Virus record (IMG/VR): IMGVR_UViG_2648501165_000013
Location: 1-7,011 of that record
Reading direction: 5' to 3' (one strand)
DNA: 7,011 nucleotides
Origin: a virus
Taxonomy: Duplodnaviria; Heunggongvirae; Uroviricota; Caudoviricetes
This document shows, in pieces, positions 1-7,011 of this stretch (its first letter is position 1; the number at the start of each line of letters is the position of its first letter). The notes beneath the pieces are model-generated. The model had not been told where the DNA came from, made no database searches, and was given only the letters and a program-made list of their open reading frames with translations. Position numbers and translations under genes: made by a program.

Positions 1-1236
1 CTACGATAGCCGCGCATTCAACATGGCTACCTGTTCGTCGTTCATATCATCAATCCACATACCGTAAATTTCATACACCATCTGCGCAGTTTCATGCCCC
101 ATCTGGCTGGCTATAAATGCCGGGTTCGCTCCTGCCGTCAACAGCCAGCAGGCAAAAGTATGCCGCGTATGGTACGGATTACGGCGGCGAATACCAGCAC
201 GTTTTACTGCTGCATTCCACCTTGCCCCCAAACTGCTTACCGAGTAATAAGGTTTCTGTTTTCCGTTACACACCCTGGGCATGAAAACAAAATGCAGTTT
301 TTGCTTTTCGGTTCTGCCGTACTCCCGATGATAAAAGGTGATTTCGCTTTTGCGATGATGCCCGGTCAGTTTGTATTGCTCCTTCAGTGCTTCAAGAGCA
401 GGATGCAGTAATGTTACTGTCCGGATCCCGGCATTTGTTTTTGGGGGACCGAACATATCCAGTATCGTCAGGTTTCTTCTGACATTCACAGTTCCCTTCT
501 CGAAATCCACATCCTCCCACGCCAGAGCTGCCAGTTCCCCGTGACGAAGCCCGGAGTAAACGGCAAATTTCCACAAGTTTTGGCTCTGTCCTTTTTCACT
601 TTCCATTAATGCATTGAATTCTGTTTTAGATAACGGGTCAGGCTTTATTCTGTTTCGCTGTAATTTTTTTACTCCTTCAAATGGTTTGGTTGATATAAAT
701 CCCGACTGATACGCAAAACGTAACAGCGAACAGAGCAGGGCGATATAGTTATCAACTGTGCGCACGGTTCTTCCTTTTTTGTTGGATCTTGGATTATCCA
801 GGTAAAGCGTTTCTCCATGCAGCAGTTCATTCCGGTAGTTTAAGATATCGCTATAACGAATATATGATATCGGGGTACTTTCACAAATTATTATTCTGAG
901 TGTTTTTAATTGTGATTTCGTTTTCTTCATTGTGTTTGTTGTTAACTCTGTCTCTTTAATTTTTGTCCAGATATCACAAAGCTCCCCGAACGTTTTTATG
1001 ACTCTCGTTGTCACCATTTTTGCCCCAGTGCTGGACTGGGGAAAACGTCTTAAATACTCAAATTCACCGGAGTTTATTTCATGAACTATCAGCGCTCTTA
1101 AATTTCCGGCCTTTTTAATATTACTGTTTGTAATCTCCCAGCCTTTTAATGTTTCCCGACATCGTTTTCCTCGAAACATGAACCAGATGCGAATGTTTCT
1201 ACCTCTAATCTCGACACCTGTTGGTAATTTAGACAT
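1..1236 (-). CDS. intR: Tyrosine-type site-specific integrase, Rac prophage IntR-like (411 aa)
   Basis: Complete minus-strand ORF (ATG at 1236-1234, TAG at 3-1). Translation starts MSKLPTGVEIRGRNIRIWF and has C-terminal tyrosine-recombinase signatures (GLRHGEL, HTRHTFA, GHETAQMVYEIY with a candidate catalytic Tyr). Matches my recollection of E. coli K-12 Rac IntR. Its start lies 1 nt past the xisR stop, suggesting translational coupling. Confidence 0.92.
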   Translation of the reverse strand: MSKLPTGVEIRGRNIRIWFMFRGKRCRETLKGWEITNSNIKKAGNLRALIVHEINSGEFEYLRRFPQSSTGAKMVTTRVIKTFGELCDIWTKIKETELTTNTMKKTKSQLKTLRIIICESTPISYIRYSDILNYRNELLHGETLYLDNPRSNKKGRTVRTVDNYIALLCSLLRFAYQSGFISTKPFEGVKKLQRNRIKPDPLSKTEFNALMESEKGQSQNLWKFAVYSGLRHGELAALAWEDVDFEKGTVNVRRNLTILDMFGPPKTNAGIRTVTLLHPALEALKEQYKLTGHHRKSEITFYHREYGRTEKQKLHFVFMPRVCNGKQKPYYSVSSLGARWNAAVKRAGIRRRNPYHTRHTFACWLLTAGANPAFIASQMGHETAQMVYEIYGMWIDDMNDEQVAMLNARLS

Positions 1237-1237
1237 A

Positions 1238-1453
1238 TCATGAGTCTTTGATAAACTGATTTATCTTTGGATAGTTGTACCAGATAATCCCTCGTTTGCT
1301 GTCTGGCTTACCTAAAGGAGATACTCGTTTGAAGTGGAAGCCCTCCACCCAACAGTTCTGGCGGTATGCTTCAATTTGTCTGGCCCCCAGACCAGTGCGA
1401 AGCATCAGGCCGTATTCAACCATCCACTCTTCATTAAAGATTACTTGTGCCAT
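1238..1453 (-). CDS. xisR: Excisionase-like protein, XisR/YdaQ (71 aa)
   Basis: Minus-strand ORF translating [71 protein letters not shown], ending TGA at 1240-1238. ATG at 1453-1451 is preceded by GAGGTGA about 5 nt upstream. The ORF-track version (to 1477) starts at a TTG with no better ribosome-binding site, so the ATG is preferred. Position directly upstream of intR fits an excisionase. Confidence 0.8.
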
Positions 1454-1467
1454 CGCATCACCTCTGG

Positions 1468-1500
1468 CAGGCGCCAATGTTAGACTGAAATTGACGCCTG
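1468..1500. promoter_or_regulatory. Imperfect inverted repeat (11-bp arms, 11-bp spacer) in the xisR-intR upstream region
   Basis: caggcgccaat (1468-1478) and attgacgcctg (1490-1500) are reverse complements with one mismatch. The repeat sits 15-47 nt upstream of the xisR start, in the only sizeable intergenic gap (1454-1552). No T-run follows on either strand, so an operator is more likely than a terminator. Confidence 0.25.
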
Positions 1501-1552
1501 ATGTTGATTATTAATAATCAGCTATGAAGTTTTAATTTGAATACAATGCAAT

Positions 1553-1712
1553 TCACGAGGACTGAAGTTTCTCGCAATTAAAATTTATCAGTTTTACTTT
1601 CTGCTCTCTGGAAACGCCTGCTTCTTTTTTACCTGAGAGCATTTTTTCGCATTCTGATTTCGTTAGTTTAGATTTTGAATATCTTGTCCAGTTAGTAGGA
1701 GTGCCACCTTCC
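1553..1712 (-). CDS. Small hypothetical protein at the position of Rac ydaC; 5' end lost in the N run
   Basis: Minus-strand frame open from the N run down to TGA at 1555-1553, translating ...EGGTPTNWTRYSKSKLTKSECEKMLSGKKEAGVSREQKVKLINFNCEKLQSS. It lies between ralR and xisR as ydaC does in K-12 Rac. The start codon cannot be located because 1713-1722 is N. I do not recognise the protein sequence itself. Confidence 0.5.
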
Positions 1713-1722
1713 NNNNNNNNNN
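1713..1722. other. Run of 10 N (gap or masked bases)
   Basis: Ten consecutive n characters; separates the ydaC-position ORF from the ralR stop. Confidence 1.
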
Positions 1723-1735
1723 TGTAGCGGTAATT

Positions 1736-1942
1736 TTATACATGAACGCCTCCATTAATATTTTCAGTGGTTCGTTTATCCCATCTTTCGAGCGCTTCTT
1801 TTTCACTTCCACCATAGCCAGTTCGGGATTCGCATCCGTTGCATTTTGCCCGGTAATATCATGAAATGTCTTTCACCGTTACTGATGGACAACCACAAAA
1901 CGGACATGGTTTAACATCGTCATATCTCAAAGTTTTTGTCAT
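1736..1942 (-). pseudogene. ralR: ralR (Lar-family restriction-alleviation protein / RalR DNase toxin) interrupted by an in-frame TGA at codon 28
   Basis: Minus-strand frame from ATG 1942-1940 reads MTKTLRYDDVKPCPFCGCPSVTVKDIS, then TGA (1861-1859), then continues in the same frame as YYRAKCNGCESRTGYGGSEKEALERWDKRTTENINGGVHV to TAA at 1738-1736. Cys pairs on both sides of the stop (CPFCGC and CNGC) indicate one ancestral 68-codon gene. An alternative in-frame ATG at 1969-1967 has a better ribosome-binding site. Confidence 0.7.
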
Positions 1943-1986
1943 AAAAACTATCTCACGTTGGCGGTGCATTACACCGCCTGGCTGAA

Positions 1987-2796
1987 TTATTCTTCTGAAT
2001 TATCGATTACACTGTATTCCCCGGTTAATACAGAGGAGTCTGCCGGATCGATTGTCAGTGGTTCCTTTTCATCCATTGATACTGCACGCTGGATTTCAAT
2101 TGAGACAGGCAGGTATTTAAACAGGCGACGAATAGCCGTTTTTTTTGCCATTTCTTCCCAGTGAGTTACCCACGGCCCGTTATTACCTGCCTTACTCTGG
2201 CTGCGCACCAGTTCAATCTGTTTGCGCGTCATAACTTCAAACTGAGTCCCTCCGTCTTTCAGTCTTGCGACAGCATAGACGTGGGTCACTGGTGCATCTT
2301 CGTTTTCTCCCGGGCGGTGTATTAACTTTTCATCAAGGCCAAATTCGAAGCTAAACTCGTCACCTTCACGGACAACACGGGCTGACAGGCTGGCGATTTG
2401 ACCAGAACGGCGAGCCAGATCAATCATGCCGCGATAGCCAATGATTAGCTGAACGTTCTTTTTACCGCTCTTTTCGTTTTTATTACCAAAAGGCAGTAAA
2501 TATGCGTGGCCAAGGGCGCTACCTGGCTCAAGGCCGAGCTGTGAACACTGTACGATTGCACTGACAAAACTCATAGTGTCACAGTTTCCTAACGCTGGAA
2601 CGTTACGAATTTCTGTGGTGGCGATACGGATCATACGTTCAGCCGTCATATGGCGTGGAAGAGCTGCTGCCAGTTGCTCTTTCATTGATGGCTGGTTAAT
2701 AAAACTAATCACGTCGTTATTTTTAACTGCTGCTGGTGCACGGTTTCCCTGAGTTTTTTGCAGATCGGCTTTTGCGATTGGTGGTTGCTTAGTCAT
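1987..2796 (-). CDS. recT: RecT single-strand annealing protein (269 aa)
   Basis: Minus-strand ORF translating [50 protein letters not shown]...VIDNSEE, matching my recollection of K-12 RecT. ATG at 2796-2794 is preceded by AGGA. The start overlaps the recE stop (ATGACTAA); the ORF-track N-terminal extension to 2853 is recE 3' sequence in another frame. Confidence 0.95.
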
Positions 2797-3798
2797 TTGC
2801 ATATTCCTTAGCCCAGCGGGGCAGTGATAACGTCTTAATAGCTGGCCATTCATCGGTATTGAGGCAGTCAGCCAGGGTCCTCAGATTGCGGTGATATTCC
2901 TGCTGGCCTGCCAGTTTTGCTTCTTCGCCCATCATGAAAATCTCAATCGGGTAACGTCCGCATTCAACAGTTGTGCTGGCAACCAGAAAAACGAAAGTTG
3001 GCAGCACACCAAACTGTGCTTCATAACCGTCACTGTAGAATGCATCCTGAACGTGATAGCGGTAGTCGTAATAAGCCGTTTTGAATCGTTGAATATCCGC
3101 TGTGGTTTTCACGTCCATGATCCAGTGAAATTCAGGAATAATTTTGTCCGGACGGCACCGACACAAAATTCCTGTTTCCGGATCTTCCCAGTAAATTGAT
3201 GATTCAGCGTGTCCGGCGCTTTCCACAAGCCATTGACCCAGCGGCAAAGCCATAACGCTCTGATACATGAGTTCAATTTTCCGGCCTTCTTCGGCAGTGA
3301 TAACCGTTTTTCCTGTGCTTGCGCATTCCATCAGAAACGCTTTCTCTTCTTCTTTTCCGGCGTTTGTACGGCGGTTAAATTCAGGTGCTACGATAAAGCG
3401 GTTACTGAATTCTTCCGGTTCAAGTACACGGCAGTGGAAAGCGGTTCCTAAATCGAGCGTTTTTGTCTTTGTGGTGTCCACAGGGGCATTTTTACGCCAC
3501 AAATACAGCGCCGGAGTATCAGCAATGTCGTCGAGCTGAGACTTACTGACACCGGGACCCGCGTGGTAATTCTCATTCGAAATTCCGTAATAAATACCAG
3601 GCTCTATGTCTCCTGCGATTACGGGATCTGCGACTTCGCCAGTTTCATCACTGCAATCGCGATGCAGATCGCTGCCAGCATTCTCATTGTGCGGATGTTC
3701 AGGGCCTTCCATTTCCTCCGGCTCTTTTTCCTGAGATTCATCCAGATTTTCTTCATTAAAGGTTTCCTGATACGTTGCGTCGCCCATCACCGCACCAC
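2789..3798 (-). CDS. recE: recE 3' portion: exonuclease VIII C-terminal nuclease domain (about 336 codons); 5' side ends at an N run
   Basis: Minus-strand frame reads [60 protein letters not shown]...[24 protein letters not shown]...[11 protein letters not shown], ending TAA at 2791-2789. The PDK...IMDVK pattern fits a PD-(D/E)XK nuclease and the C-terminal sequence matches my recollection of K-12 RecE. Upstream of 3799 the ORF-track frame is not RecE. Confidence 0.9.
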
Positions 3799-3808
3799 NN
3801 NNNNNNNN
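3799..3808. other. Run of 10 N (gap or masked bases)
   Basis: Ten n characters exactly at the switch from recE sequence to bet sequence. Confidence 1.
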
Positions 3809-3950
3809 GCAGTGCGATAAACTGCGCATCGCTGGCATTGCCTTTAAATGCCGTCTGGCGAAGAGTGGCGATCAGTTCCTGCGGGTCGACAGTATCCATG
3901 CCGACACGTTCAGCCAGCTTCCCGGCCAGTGTTGCAAGTGCTGTACTCAT
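3809..3950 (-). pseudogene. bet: 5' fragment of bet (lambda Red-beta family annealing protein), first 47 codons only
   Basis: ATG at 3950-3948 with GAGGT about 9 nt upstream. Translation MSTALATLAGKLAERVGMDTVDPQELIATLRQTAFKGNASDAQFIAL matches the lambda Bet N-terminus as I recall it. The frame runs into the N run and then continues out of frame over recE sequence ([13 protein letters not shown], stop at 3758-3756). Confidence 0.8.
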
Positions 3951-3955
3951 TTGTT

Positions 3956-4255
3956 TTATACCTCTGAATCAATATCAACCTGGTGGTGAGCAATGGTTTC
4001 AACCATGTACCGGATGTGTTCTGCCATGCGTTCCTGAAATTCAACATCGTCATCAAATGCGCGACTGATTGCCTGTTTGCTGGCACCGTGGCGTTGCAAA
4101 TGGTCGATGCAGAGCGATTCAAACAGGTGCTGAGGCAGACCTTTTTCCAGGTCGTCCGCCAGTTCCGTTTCTTTTTCTTCGCGAACGATCTTCTGGTAGT
4201 GGCGTGACCATGCCAGCTCTTCAATGCGATCAAAAATCGGGCATGTGCTCATCAT
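3956..4255 (-). CDS. gam: Gam-like RecBCD inhibitor, short GamS-type form (99 aa)
   Basis: Minus-strand ORF translating [99 protein letters not shown]. The C-terminal 75 residues are near-identical to lambda Gam as I recall it; the N-terminus is divergent. A stop lies two codons upstream in frame, and the gene ends 5 nt before the bet ATG, the same gam-then-bet order as lambda. Confidence 0.85.
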
Positions 4256-4373
4256 CTGTTACCCCAAAATTTTCAAGTTTGTTTGCGATCATCATTGCAA
4301 TACCCGGAATTAATGGCGCTGAGGCTATACCTGCAGGATTCGCACATAAACCGTAAACCGCCGCAATCACCAC
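4230..4373 (-). CDS. Hypothetical small hydrophobic protein (47 aa if GTG start) overlapping the gam start; may instead be the C-terminal tail of a longer recE-like ORF
   Basis: Frame reads [47 protein letters not shown] to TGA at 4232-4230. It has a transmembrane-like hydrophobic core and overlaps gam by 26 nt, the position kil occupies in lambda. There is no in-frame ATG with a ribosome-binding site; the frame is continuous upstream with the recE-like RDCSDETGE codons. Confidence 0.3.
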
Positions 4374-4444
4374 TTGTCTTTTCCAGTCGAGTTTTTCTAA
4401 TGATGAAGCTGTTGCTTCGCCAGTTTCATCACTGCAATCGCGAT

Positions 4445-4454
4445 NNNNNNNNNN
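4445..4454. other. Run of 10 N (gap or masked bases)
   Basis: Ten n characters inside the recE-like acidic linker, between VRENE and RDCSDETGE. Confidence 1.
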
Positions 4455-4556
4455 CTCATTTTCCCGAACTTCAACCTGATTCTCGTCATCGAATGTTTCC
4501 TGATATGTTGCGTCGCCCATCACCGCACCACAGTCAGGGCAGTTATCCCCGCCAGA

Positions 4557-4719
4557 CTGACCGCAGGCGGTGCAAACTTTCTCCGTTTCCTGTTGTTGCA
4601 CTACTGGCTCAGGCTGTTTCGTTTCTGGCTCGTTTTGTTGCGTATTTTGGTCGTTCTGTTCCGTTTCTGGCTGATTCTGGTATATAGAGTCGCGGGTCTG
4701 GATCCCCTTAACCCATTTC
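4557..4719. repeat. Diverged direct repeat, copy 2 of a ~160-bp recE module ([10 protein letters not shown]...CTACGQ)
   Basis: Aligns to 4731-4890 with a 3-bp length difference and roughly 75% amino-acid identity ([54 protein letters not shown] versus [53 protein letters not shown]). Confidence 0.8.
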
Positions 4720-4729
4720 NNNNNNNNNN
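4720..4729. other. Run of 10 N (gap or masked bases)
   Basis: Ten n characters exactly between the two copies of the ~160-bp module. Confidence 1.
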
Positions 4730-4730
4730 T

Positions 4731-4890
4731 CTGACCGCAGGCATTGCAGACTATTTCCGGTTTCTGTTGCACTACTGGTTCAGGTTGTTTCACATCCGGG
4801 CTGGTTTTTACAGTTTCTGGCGTGTTTTGTTCCGTTTCTGGCTGGTTCTGGTACACAGAGTCGCGAGTCTGGATCCCCTTTACCCATTTC
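4731..4890. repeat. Diverged direct repeat, copy 1 of the ~160-bp recE module ([10 protein letters not shown]...CNACGQ)
   Basis: See its partner at 4557-4719. Confidence 0.8.
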
Positions 4891-4914
4891 GGATCGTTCG
4901 GGTCGCTAATCCCT

Positions 4915-5706
4915 TCAACGAACTCACCACGCGAAGCAGCCAGTAATTTGTCTGCATCGACAGGATTTTTGGGCGGAATGTTTTTCCGGGCTTCATGGAG
5001 TTCTGCCCGCAGTTTCTGATATTTTTCATCAACAGAATTTACCTGTGACTGAGCATCCAGCGGCTGCGTGTCCTGATGATGTTCAGTTGCATCCGGTTCC
5101 ACTGTTTCAGCCGTTGCCTGTTCATCTGCCATTGCGCAAGATGGTTGCAGTTTTTCTTCATCATCCTGTTTTTCTTCTTCTGTTACACGCTGCGGCATCG
5201 GGGCAGAGGAACGACCGCAGGCAATATCCACGATTTCTGGATCAGGGTTGGCATGATCAGTTTCAGTCAGTACTTTGTTCAGATATTCAGTGACGTGCGC
5301 GGGGATGACCTCGATCCCAATTGGTGCTTCTTTCACGGACGCAACCACGATGGCGCGGGAATAATCCAGCCCGCCAGGCATGGTGATGAATTTGTCGCGG
5401 AAAACAGAAAAGGGTGGTTTATTTTCAGCGATAATTTCCTCGACACGTTTAGCGTGTGCCGGATGAAGGTTATAAATGTCCACGTCCATTGAACGAGCCA
5501 GTACGCCAGTGGCTACGTCGCGCGCCAGTGACGTCAGATCGTGAACGAAACCTTCGCCGCGATCGGTGAGGTTCCCGCCGCCAGCATTAGCGCCGGAAGC
5601 CGTGCGCGTGATGCGTGAAACACGATTTCCTTTTCGCCATTCTTTTGTCAGAAGACCGCGATCAATGTGTTCGGTATCCAGCCAGGCTGAAATGAAATTC
5701 TTAAAT
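4915..5706. repeat. Direct repeat copy A (~792 bp) of recE coding sequence
   Basis: Aligns base for base at an offset of 802 with 5717-6508. About 475 bp (4936-5410) is essentially identical (one difference seen), the next ~300 bp is about 93% identical, and 4915-4935 differs at every third position (wobble sites). The plus-strand ORF-track entries 5045..5293 and 5847..6095 have identical translations. Confidence 0.95.
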
Positions 5707-7011
5707 NNNNNNNNNNTCAACAAATTCTCCGCGAGAGGCAGCCAGTAATTTGTCTGTATCGACAGGATTTTTGGGCGGAATGTTTTTCCGGGCTTCATGG
5801 AGTTCTGCCCGCAGTTTCTGATATTTTTCATCAACAGAATTTACCTGTGACTGAGCATCCAGCGGCTGCGTGTCCTGATGATGTTCAGTTGCATCCGGTT
5901 CCACTGTTTCAGCCGTTGCCTGTTCATCTGCCATTGCGCAAGATGGTTGCAGTTTTTCTTCATCATCCTGTTTTTCTTCTTCTGTTACACGCTGCGGCAT
6001 CGGGGCAGAGGAACGACCGCAGGCAATATCCACGATTTCTGGATCAGGGTTGGCATGATCAGTTTCAGTCAGTACTTTGTTCAGATATTCAGTGACGTGC
6101 GCGGGGATGACCTCGATCCCAATTGGTGCTTCTTTCACGGACGCAACCACGATGGCGCGGGAATAATCCAGCCCGCCAGGCATGGTGATGAATTTGTCGC
6201 GGAAAACAGAAAAGGGCGGTTTATTTTCAGCGATAATTTCCTCAATGCGTTTAGCGTGTGCCGGATGAAGGTTATAGATGTCCACGTCCATTGAACGGGC
6301 CAGAATGCCAGTGGCTACGTCGCGGGCCAGCGACGCCTGATCATGAACGAAACCTTCGCCGCGATCGGTAAGGTTCCCGCCGCCTGCATTAGCACCGGAA
6401 TCTGTGCGAGTGATGCGTGAAACACGATTCCCTTTTCGCCATTCTTTTGTTAGAAGACCGCGATCAATGTGTTCGGTGTCCAGCCAGGCTGAAATGAAAT
6501 TCTTAAATTCATAGGGCTGATGTTTTTTCGTGATAGAGAAAACTGCCTTAATTGCATCAGTCAGGCGGAGCAGGGCGGCATTATCCAGAGTTGTCGGTTC
6601 TGCCATGCCGCGTATGGCCAACAGCAGATTCTGGACATAGCTGTTTTCCTGATCCATCTCAAGAGCAGTAATGTGTTTGCGTTGTTCACGGGTGGCATGA
6701 TGCAGGTATTTCCGATCCCCGGCCGCATACGTAAAAATGTGCAGAAGACGCTGTGTGAACCGCAAAGTGGCTACAGAGACTTCGCAATCCTGGCAATCCC
6801 CGTGGGCGTCTGCCTGCGCGTTTTCTTCCAGGCCTCCCGCCAGTTCTTTGGTTTCCTGAGCATTATCCTGGTGGTGAACGTCGTCTGGCGCTGCTCCCGG
6901 TTTTAGTTCCCAGGTCATGGAGTCTTTGCTGAGTTGATAGCGGTCACTCCAGGTAAAATCGATCTCACCTTCAGGGGGCAGGTCATTAACGACAGGAAAA
7001 TTCGTGGCAAC
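5701..7011 (-). CDS. recE: recE 5' portion (RecE N-terminal, non-nuclease region); start lies beyond the window end; frame stops at 5703-5701 just past the N run
   Basis: Minus-strand frame open from the window edge reads [43 protein letters not shown]...[42 protein letters not shown]...[11 protein letters not shown]. The conserved blocks match my recollection of K-12 RecE residues from about 60 onward; the stretch between them is a divergent allele. The frame is +1 relative to copy A, so it terminates right after the junction. Confidence 0.8.
5707..5716. other. Run of 10 N (gap or masked bases)
   Basis: Ten n characters exactly at the junction of the two ~792-bp copies. Confidence 1.
5717..6508. 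repeat. Direct repeat copy B (~792 bp) of recE coding sequence
   Basis: See copy A at 4915-5706. Confidence 0.95.

Follow-up and report, generated by a model that had tools for sequence, protein, structure and literature searches.

Hybrids of the lambda reverse type are known in which the recombination cassette has been exchanged between a Rac-type and a lambda-type element. What the N-terminal two-thirds of RecE (exodeoxyribonuclease VIII) of Rac do has long been a puzzle; the one effect on record is that full-length RecE improves linear-linear recombineering (PMC11611040). Nuclease-less "RecE-2" proteins of unknown role have been mentioned, in one sentence, in the early-left operons of lambdoid elements (Genome Res 2025, PMC12315714). 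Here, we analyze a 7,011-bp stretch of DNA from a member of the Caudoviricetes (positions 1 to 7,011 of IMG/VR record IMGVR_UViG_2648501165_000013), referred to as the window, and in particular its minus-strand segment 4230-4444, in which a recE-like reading frame runs into an unrelated C-terminal tail and ends inside a homologue of the lambda gene gam. We conclude, with a probability of about 0.85, that this segment is the 3' end of a nuclease-less recE paralogue, encoding a protein of ~680 amino acids (aa), in the early-left operon of a Rac-like prophage. The protein is predicted to consist of a RecE N-terminal (RecE-N) body of ~595 aa, comprising the Pfam Exonuc_VIII region, a spacer, a zinc ribbon and an acidic linker, followed by a conserved domain of ~45 aa and, in the window lineage, a short acidic extension; no PD-(D/E)XK domain is predicted in it.

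Results

Positions 4415-4444 are exactly identical to positions 3634-3663, which belong to a true recE gene elsewhere in the window. The match extends 0 nucleotides (nt) to the left and is bounded on the right by the end of a contig, followed by a run of 10 N (N10); the chance expectation of such a repeat in 7 kb is ~2e-11. Aligned in register, the sequence below 4415 is 30% identical to recE, equal to random, and neither blastn nor blastp finds similarity between it and the remainder of recE. On the minus strand, the frame continues through 61 further codons, from 4415 down to 4233, with its stop codon at 4230-4232, which lies 26 nt inside gam at its listed start or 23 nt inside at the start called by PGAP. 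On these three points our analysis agrees with an initial annotation made from the sequence alone. The 61 codons (4233-4415, minus strand; ATASSLEK...HMPDF) are referred to here as the tail and would form the C-terminus of the nuclease-less RecE-N protein, as indicated by the open frame, by the presence of this tail at the end of intact coding sequences (CDSs) of 657-686 aa, and by the substitution pattern described below. The preceding codons, RDCSDETGE (4416-4444, minus strand), are the end of the acidic linker; together with base 4415 they make up the 30-bp repeat, and they mark both a domain-swap boundary and the contig end. We also considered the tail as a remnant of the RecE nuclease domain and rejected this because it retains no residual similarity.

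A limit on the initial annotation is that the window is not continuous. Five runs of exactly 10 N divide it into six contigs, and position 4444 is the end of the third, the 636-bp piece 3 (3809-4444). The join could therefore be an assembly or chimeric-read artefact: the identity is exactly 30 bp long and lies at a contig end, piece 3 ends exactly 30 nt after becoming identical to the other recE copy, the right end of piece 5 likewise lies exactly 30 nt past its last mismatch to piece 6, and both ends have the appearance expected of contig ends in a k=31 de Bruijn graph. However, the same join occurs in complete genomes, the best of which matches piece 3 at 99.7% identity and carries ~1.8 kb of recE-like sequence upstream of it, and in finished phage genomes. 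This excludes a chimeric read at 4415-4444 and leaves an artefact of any kind with a negligible probability. In 96 complete Escherichia coli genomes, 80% or more of piece 3 is matched, in five of them at 99% identity or more; six phage records are matched as well and represent four phages, namely Shigella phages 75/02 Stx and POCJ13 (two records each), PhiR5_2 and phiSTEC1589-Stx1c. The junction is thus genuine, widespread and common to diverged lineages, and the contig break alone is an assembly effect, the assembler having broken the contig at the 30-bp repeat shared with the true recE copy. The recombination junction proposed in the initial annotation stands as a genuine module boundary but is not particular to this sequence, as diverged lineages and a third C-terminal variant share it.

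One locus of the complete genome NZ_CP020106 (L001) matches pieces 3, 4 and 6 of the window in collinear order, at 99.7%, 100% and 98.6% identity, respectively; there, 58 and 24 nt separate the matches. The gene order at L001 is kilR, ydaE, a small gene, the recE-like gene, gam, bet, exo, ralR, a DUF1187 gene, xis and int. Like arrangements are found at the ttcA site with intR (L003, L005 and L006) and at the ynfG site with another integrase (L004, L007 and L008), and yebY is a third site for the order kilR...RecE-N gene-gam-bet-exo-(ralR)-xis-int. A lambda Red module accompanies the gene: the window holds the Gam homologue and the 5' end of bet, and complete bet and exo genes are present at the collinear L001 locus. 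In all eight loci examined, gam-bet-exo follows the RecE-N gene, and none of them has recT immediately downstream.

The hybrid gene is intact in many of its occurrences. CDSs of 657-686 aa that include the tail have been called by PGAP or by phage annotators in L002, L004, L005, L007 and L008; at L006 the frame is open for 639 aa, and the protein database holds many intact proteins of 656-671 aa from E. coli, Shigella flexneri and E. albertii. The precomputed domain content of these proteins is PF06630 only. This family is also matched by the N-terminal open reading frame (ORF) of L001 (3e-68) and by gp06 of phage 75/02 (6e-13), and the nuclease domain PF12684/DUF3799 is found in the true recE copy of the window and not in the tail-bearing ORFs. 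With L001 sequence in both gaps, the window copy has an open frame of 618 aa that begins at the window edge and reaches the stop codon of the tail. The suggestion that a RecE N-terminal region might exist without the nuclease domain upstream of gam in related prophages is borne out by these intact proteins of 656-686 aa, which lie beside gam-bet-exo in complete genomes and in the four phages named above. In L001, an extra G in a G run at ~8311-8336 frameshifts the gene; piece 6 of the window lacks the extra G.

One alternative is that the tail is a non-functional read-through left after loss of the recE nuclease domain, with a frame that is open by chance. Some copies of the gene are labelled by PGAP as pseudogenes "missing C-terminus", and the copies in L001 and L003 are frameshifted, both of which would fit such decay. 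The label, however, arises because the gene is compared to a full-length RecE model and matches it only over positions 1-600 of 877. The tail form P0017 scores 1197 bits over these positions against the NCBIfam exodeoxyribonuclease VIII equivalog NF007259, below its curated cut-off of 1269 bits, and the true RecE P0035 scores 1869 bits over the full length. The same label is carried by in-frame copies such as that of L006.

The substitution pattern also argues against read-through. Between the window lineage and lineages at ~83% DNA identity, the 43 codons of the tail core differ by 20 synonymous and 8-11 non-synonymous changes, and third codon positions hold 21 of the 28-31 differences. The ratio of non-synonymous to synonymous substitution rates (dN/dS) in these comparisons is 0.05-0.07, and it is 0.08 between L007 and L008; in the other two frames it is greater than 2. 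Strong purifying selection is therefore seen in the tail frame and not in the others. Protein-level conservation extends across this ~83% DNA identity and into other genera, and stand-alone homologues exist. We consider chance read-through very unlikely. A tail without homologues or codon-level conservation, which the initial annotation had allowed for, is not what we find, with homologues present and dN/dS at 0.05-0.08.

The tail also follows in frame behind at least four acidic linkers of differing length. These read ...(T/A)ASSLEK-LDWKRQ, ...EEMEGTEPSLEK-LDWKRQ, ...DNNDDSEQAD-FDWKRQ and ...KADSEPEI-LDWKRQ, with ...SNNETGEDE-LNWKKQ in database fragments. This continuity bears on a second alternative raised by the initial annotation, namely a separate gene of 47 aa with GTG 4373 as its start codon, in the position of lambda kil. 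There are GTG codons at 4373 and 4370, and the ORF overlaps the start of gam as kil does. Nevertheless, GTG 4373 is replaced by CTC in the L002, L007 and L008 lineages, and conserved residues begin upstream of both GTGs (L/F-D-W-K-R-Q, with W/Y/F-K/R-Q-Q/R in distant homologues). At most a weak purine-rich stretch precedes the GTG, and the linker indels never put the tail out of frame with the large ORF. Lambda Kil (47 aa) gave no BLASTP alignment with the tail at E<=100, and the prophages with the tail carry a Rac-type kilR further upstream. What remains of the comparison with kil is position, an ORF directly upstream of gam that overlaps its start; an independent peptide is highly improbable. 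Instead, these patterns point to translation of the tail in the RecE-N frame, as a C-terminus, under purifying selection, of the large protein.

The N-terminal body occurs, at 88-95% identity, in three protein architectures, which part from each other immediately past a linker motif, ...(E/K)TGE. In the true RecE (P0035, 884 aa), ...RDCSDETGE is followed by PF12684, and in the tail form (P0017, 657 aa) the same ...RDCSDETGE is followed by AAASSLEKLDWKRQ. In a third protein, P0046 (800 aa), ...ASDNKTGE leads through ATDPLIKVNGHH into a DnaQ-like 3'-5' exonuclease domain (PF16473, 7e-66). P0046 (L015 5001-7403) occupies the same operon slot, in the order kilR, a small gene, P0046, xis and int. 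Because diverged lineages and this third C-terminal variant share the boundary, it is an old and recurrent domain-swap point in a low-complexity acidic linker rather than the product of an event in one genome. The tail and the nuclease domain are mutually exclusive: the longest of nine tail carriers has 683 aa, and none is long enough to hold both.

The other end of the exchanged cassette lies near or within the 5' end of ralR, where homology between the cassette types ends at about window position 1915 (~2132 in L005). The exchanged units are the recE nuclease domain plus recT on one side and the tail plus gam, bet and exo on the other. The first few codons of RalR differ between recT-linked and exo-linked versions. 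In the Rac-type copy of the window, ralR carries a GGA-to-TGA nonsense change at 1859-1861 (minus strand), after ...VTVKDIS, where the intact ralR of L005 has Gly.

No Pfam family covers the tail, no solved structure is related to it (best E=0.97), word-indexed protein searches with it returned short fragments and no distant relatives, and a translated search of a phage collection with the tail carrier P0013 gave no match. An exhaustive profile search of 1.84 billion representative proteins recovered only the nine tail carriers. They include P0011 (683 aa), whose RecE-N body ends ...LTWKQRLTIAAIQGLCANPACCAVIDEIPGMADMIANNVMRIQEG, and P0013, which aligns with the C-terminal portion of phrog_26058 (1e-36). 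When one genome per species was scanned, the motif turned up as the C-terminal end of two further RecE-like prophage proteins that lack a nuclease domain, one of 473 aa in Cedecea (L009 6714-8135, plus strand) and one of 545 aa in Buttiauxella (L012 6498-8135, plus strand). The N-terminal parts of both match the RecE-type "exonuclease" families phrog_2489 and phrog_2082, as does P0017. When the Buttiauxella protein was compared with P0017 by BLASTP, only the tail was aligned; the N-terminal relationship rests on the shared PHROG profiles.

The same scan revealed stand-alone proteins of 65-68 aa in three cyanobacterial assemblies, for example MEGHHLDRIGFRQHLIIAAVQGLCANPTQDGIAPEELAERAVAIAEAVIEKK..., with the core motif FRQQLIIAAVQGLCANP (L011 1525-1731, plus strand; L013 4583-4780, plus strand; L010 217-282). 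The L013 gene lies just downstream of a gene for a ParA-like ATPase. These proteins match the segment of phrog_26058 that is matched by the tails, at E=6e-5 to 2e-4. The direct match of the window tail to this segment (profile positions ~581-629) is weak (E=0.068), and the link is transitive, through P0011 (3e-11), the Cedecea and Buttiauxella tails (~7e-9) and the cyanobacterial proteins. From these matches, the tail appears to belong to a small uncharacterised domain family with the core [WYF]-[KR]-Q-x-[LV]-x-[IL]-A-A-[VI]-[YQ]-G-L-C-A-N-P. In the window, the conserved tail core spans 4263-4391 on the minus strand; it is modelled as a helix, a Pro/Gly-rich loop and a second helix, and is conserved in the 75/02, L008, P0003, P0011, Cedecea and Buttiauxella lineages.

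The initial annotation had described the tail as transmembrane-like, and a segment of this kind could in principle anchor either the RecE-N protein or a small peptide in the inner membrane. No charged residue occurs over a run of 32 residues in the window tail, its best 19-residue Kyte-Doolittle average is 1.62, which is at the usual threshold, and its Wimley-White octanol sum is ~-0.5. However, this borderline hydropathy is seen only in the E. coli lineage. The average drops to 0.95 in the Cedecea tail, and Asp and Glu occur inside the homologous stretch of P0011, Buttiauxella and Cedecea (AVIDEIPGMADMIANN, FDEIAEMAITLA and FDELSSMALHLAE). Past the core motif, the stand-alone homologues from cyanobacteria are rich in charged residues, the invariant GLCANPA motif places Asn and Pro in the middle of the stretch, and the remainder of the protein is large, acidic and of a soluble type. 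An AlphaFold2 (AF2) model of the tail alone (mean predicted local distance difference test [pLDDT] 61), used for secondary structure only, has helices at residues 11-25 and 35-49, a Pro/Gly-rich joint and a disordered acidic end. Each helix, at ~15 residues, is too short for a membrane span, for which an unbroken hydrophobic helix of ~19-20 residues or more was taken as the criterion, and two such helices with a conserved Asn-Pro between them fit a helical hairpin better. We regard a membrane anchor as quite unlikely; the tail is probably a small helical (hairpin) domain.

The tail ORF overlaps gam at 4230-4255 (minus strand) by 26 nt if gam starts at 4255, as listed, or by 23 nt if it starts at 4252, as annotated by PGAP in L001; in phage 75/02 the overlap is 4 nt (ATGA). 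The window gene is a short form of gam (3956-4255, minus strand), identified through the PGAP annotation of the 99.7%-identical L001 as a homologue of the lambda RecBCD inhibitor Gam, and is 82% identical to residues 41-138 of the lambda protein. A G-rich, Shine-Dalgarno-like stretch upstream of the gam ATG overlaps the codons for ...ENFG(G), with TTTTGGGGTAACAGATGATG (GGGG) in the window and TTTGGAGGTGATAAATCATGA (GGAGGTGA) in 75/02. Because the ORFs overlap and this stretch sits in the last codons of the tail, gam may be translationally coupled to the tail ORF.

At the tail stop (~4229-4236) there is a run of five T. The RecE-N/tail frame would become fused to gam if one T were missing or if a +1 slip took place at UUU-UGA; we saw no stimulatory Shine-Dalgarno-like element near the run. 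In the protein P0012, ...VTSDERLPDF reads straight into Gam sequence (DRIEEMAWARHYQQ...), a fusion perhaps due to a sequencing error in the homopolymer or to a pseudogene in Shigella.

The window scaffold interleaves contigs of two paralogous prophage regions, and the order of its pieces is not a physical map. The pieces span 1-1712, 1723-3798, 3809-4444, 4455-4719, 4730-5706 and 5717-7011, with N10 spacers at 1713-1722, 3799-3808, 4445-4454, 4720-4729 and 5707-5716. Long ORFs that read across the N runs (e.g., 4230-5834) are scaffold artefacts. Pieces 1 and 2 derive from a second locus, a true Rac-type region with int, xis, ralR, recT and recE. In it, the true recE paralogue (2789-3798, minus strand) carries the RDCSDETGE linker at 3634-3663, followed by the PD-(D/E)XK nuclease domain, as indicated by the PF12684 match and the ORF list; recT (1987-2853) lies downstream.

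Three of the remaining features belong to the hybrid locus. The bet 5' end (3809-3950, minus strand) comprises the first 47 codons and is cut by the contig end; a complete Bet of 261 aa lies at the same place in L001. Piece 4 (4455-4719, minus strand; 100% identical to L001 7695-7959) belongs to the hybrid gene and encodes its repeat-rich spacer, its zinc ribbon (CTACGQ...CPDCG) and the first part of its acidic linker. Piece 6 (5717-7011, minus strand; 98.6% identical to L001 7984-9279) holds its RecE-N body, including and extending beyond the PF06630 region, and runs off the window edge. Piece 5 (4730-5706, minus strand) is scaffolded between these hybrid-copy pieces and shares content with piece 6. 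Being less similar to L001 (93.6% identity), it too would fall to the Rac-type locus, as the RecE-N body of the true recE (copy A).

Discussion

Several points weigh against reading the segment as the end of a functional nuclease-less recE gene linked to Red recombination. Two assembly gaps interrupt the window copy, and its integrity is inferred from collinearity with L001. The L001 copy is itself frameshifted or disrupted, as is that of L003, so the gene would be dispensable in at least some hosts. The dN/dS values rest on 43 codons, with dS near saturation in the two most diverged comparisons, and the last tail codons are also constrained by the ribosome-binding-like stretch and start region of gam. 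A full-length AF2 model of P0017, built on a 14-sequence alignment, had a mean pLDDT of 39 and was discarded; the tail-only model is moderate (pLDDT 61), and the helical-domain reading rests mainly on homologue sequences. The P0046 locus has no adjacent annealase gene, and the Cedecea and Buttiauxella genes are located immediately upstream of xis-int, with none of gam, bet, exo and recT close to them. Since these three forms are found without an adjacent annealase gene, the link to Red recombination is not general.

We propose that in a Rac-like prophage the recE nuclease domain and recT were exchanged for the tail, gam, bet and exo. The 30-bp identity would then mark where homology to the genome's other, true copy of recE resumes. 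Under this proposal, the RecE N-terminal body would be an autonomous module that can occur in cis with a 5'-3' or a 3'-5' nuclease or without a nuclease. In the tail form, the RecE-N protein may be a separate accessory factor that acts in trans beside Exo, Bet and Gam, rather than in cis with a nuclease. The tail could be a small helical domain for protein-protein contact or oligomerisation, in place of the tetramer-forming nuclease domain.

The C-terminal tip of the single-stranded DNA-binding protein (SSB) is acidic and ends in Phe, and we speculate that the end of the window lineage, ...DDEHMPDF, resembles it. Redβ's C-terminal domain binds the SSB tail through the terminal Phe of SSB (PMC6393309). 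Because of this binding and the SSB-like tip, the tail could dock RecE-N onto Bet. The 75/02 lineage lacks the SSB-like extension, so the tip is not a general feature. A more far-reaching reading is that the tail is a previously undescribed portable domain, found alone in cyanobacteria and at the C-terminus of enterobacterial nuclease-less RecE-like proteins. As a partner-docking or oligomerisation module, it would replace the nuclease domain, leaving RecE-N as a free-standing accessory factor of Red with possible docking onto Bet. We offer this combination tentatively and think it unlikely to be correct.

The existence of selected natural genes that encode a RecE-N body but no nuclease, either beside a complete Red module or alone, indicates that the body is an independent module. 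The clean swap point in the linker provides ready-made constructs for probing the RecE-N body in trans. The main value of the locus is therefore as a natural handle on the function of the RecE N-terminus, together with a warning on annotation and scaffolding. Labels such as "RecE family exodeoxyribonuclease" and "exonuclease VII/VIII" mislead when they are applied to proteins without a nuclease domain, and scaffolds that interleave contigs of paralogous prophages can mimic novel junctions.

Parts of this system are already known: the sequence is present in many complete genomes and four phages, and nuclease-less RecE relatives have been published in one sentence. The tail domain, its exclusivity with the nuclease domain, the three-way swap at one linker and the stand-alone homologues appear to be undescribed so far. 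One close known counterpart of the hybrid protein is Rac RecE, with which it shares the ~595-aa N-terminal body at 91-95% identity, including PF06630, the zinc ribbon and the acidic linker, and a position in the early-left operon downstream of kilR/ydaE. It differs in that Rac RecE continues into the PF12684 nuclease domain and is followed by recT, whereas the hybrid continues into the ~45-aa domain and is followed by gam-bet-exo. The "RecE-2" proteins are likewise RecE relatives without a nuclease domain in early-left operons, but they were described as distantly related to RecE (PMC12315714), whereas, as far as the linker, the hybrid and Rac RecE are almost the same.

Other close counterparts are gene 06 of phage 75/02 Stx and its POCJ13 counterpart, annotated as exonuclease VII or exodeoxyribonuclease VIII. 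They likewise encode a RecE-N body, a variable acidic linker and the tail, with a tail core ~70% identical to that of the window, and they lie immediately upstream of gam-bet-exo. The 75/02 gene has another, longer linker and ends in ...ENFGGDKS, without the 10-aa acidic extension of the window lineage. Lambda kil resembles the tail ORF in lying immediately upstream of gam and overlapping its start, but the tail is not a separate gene. Compared with lambda reverse, the exchange here would have taken the opposite, natural direction, with a Rac-type prophage carrying Red and the left breakpoint located inside recE, at the interdomain linker.

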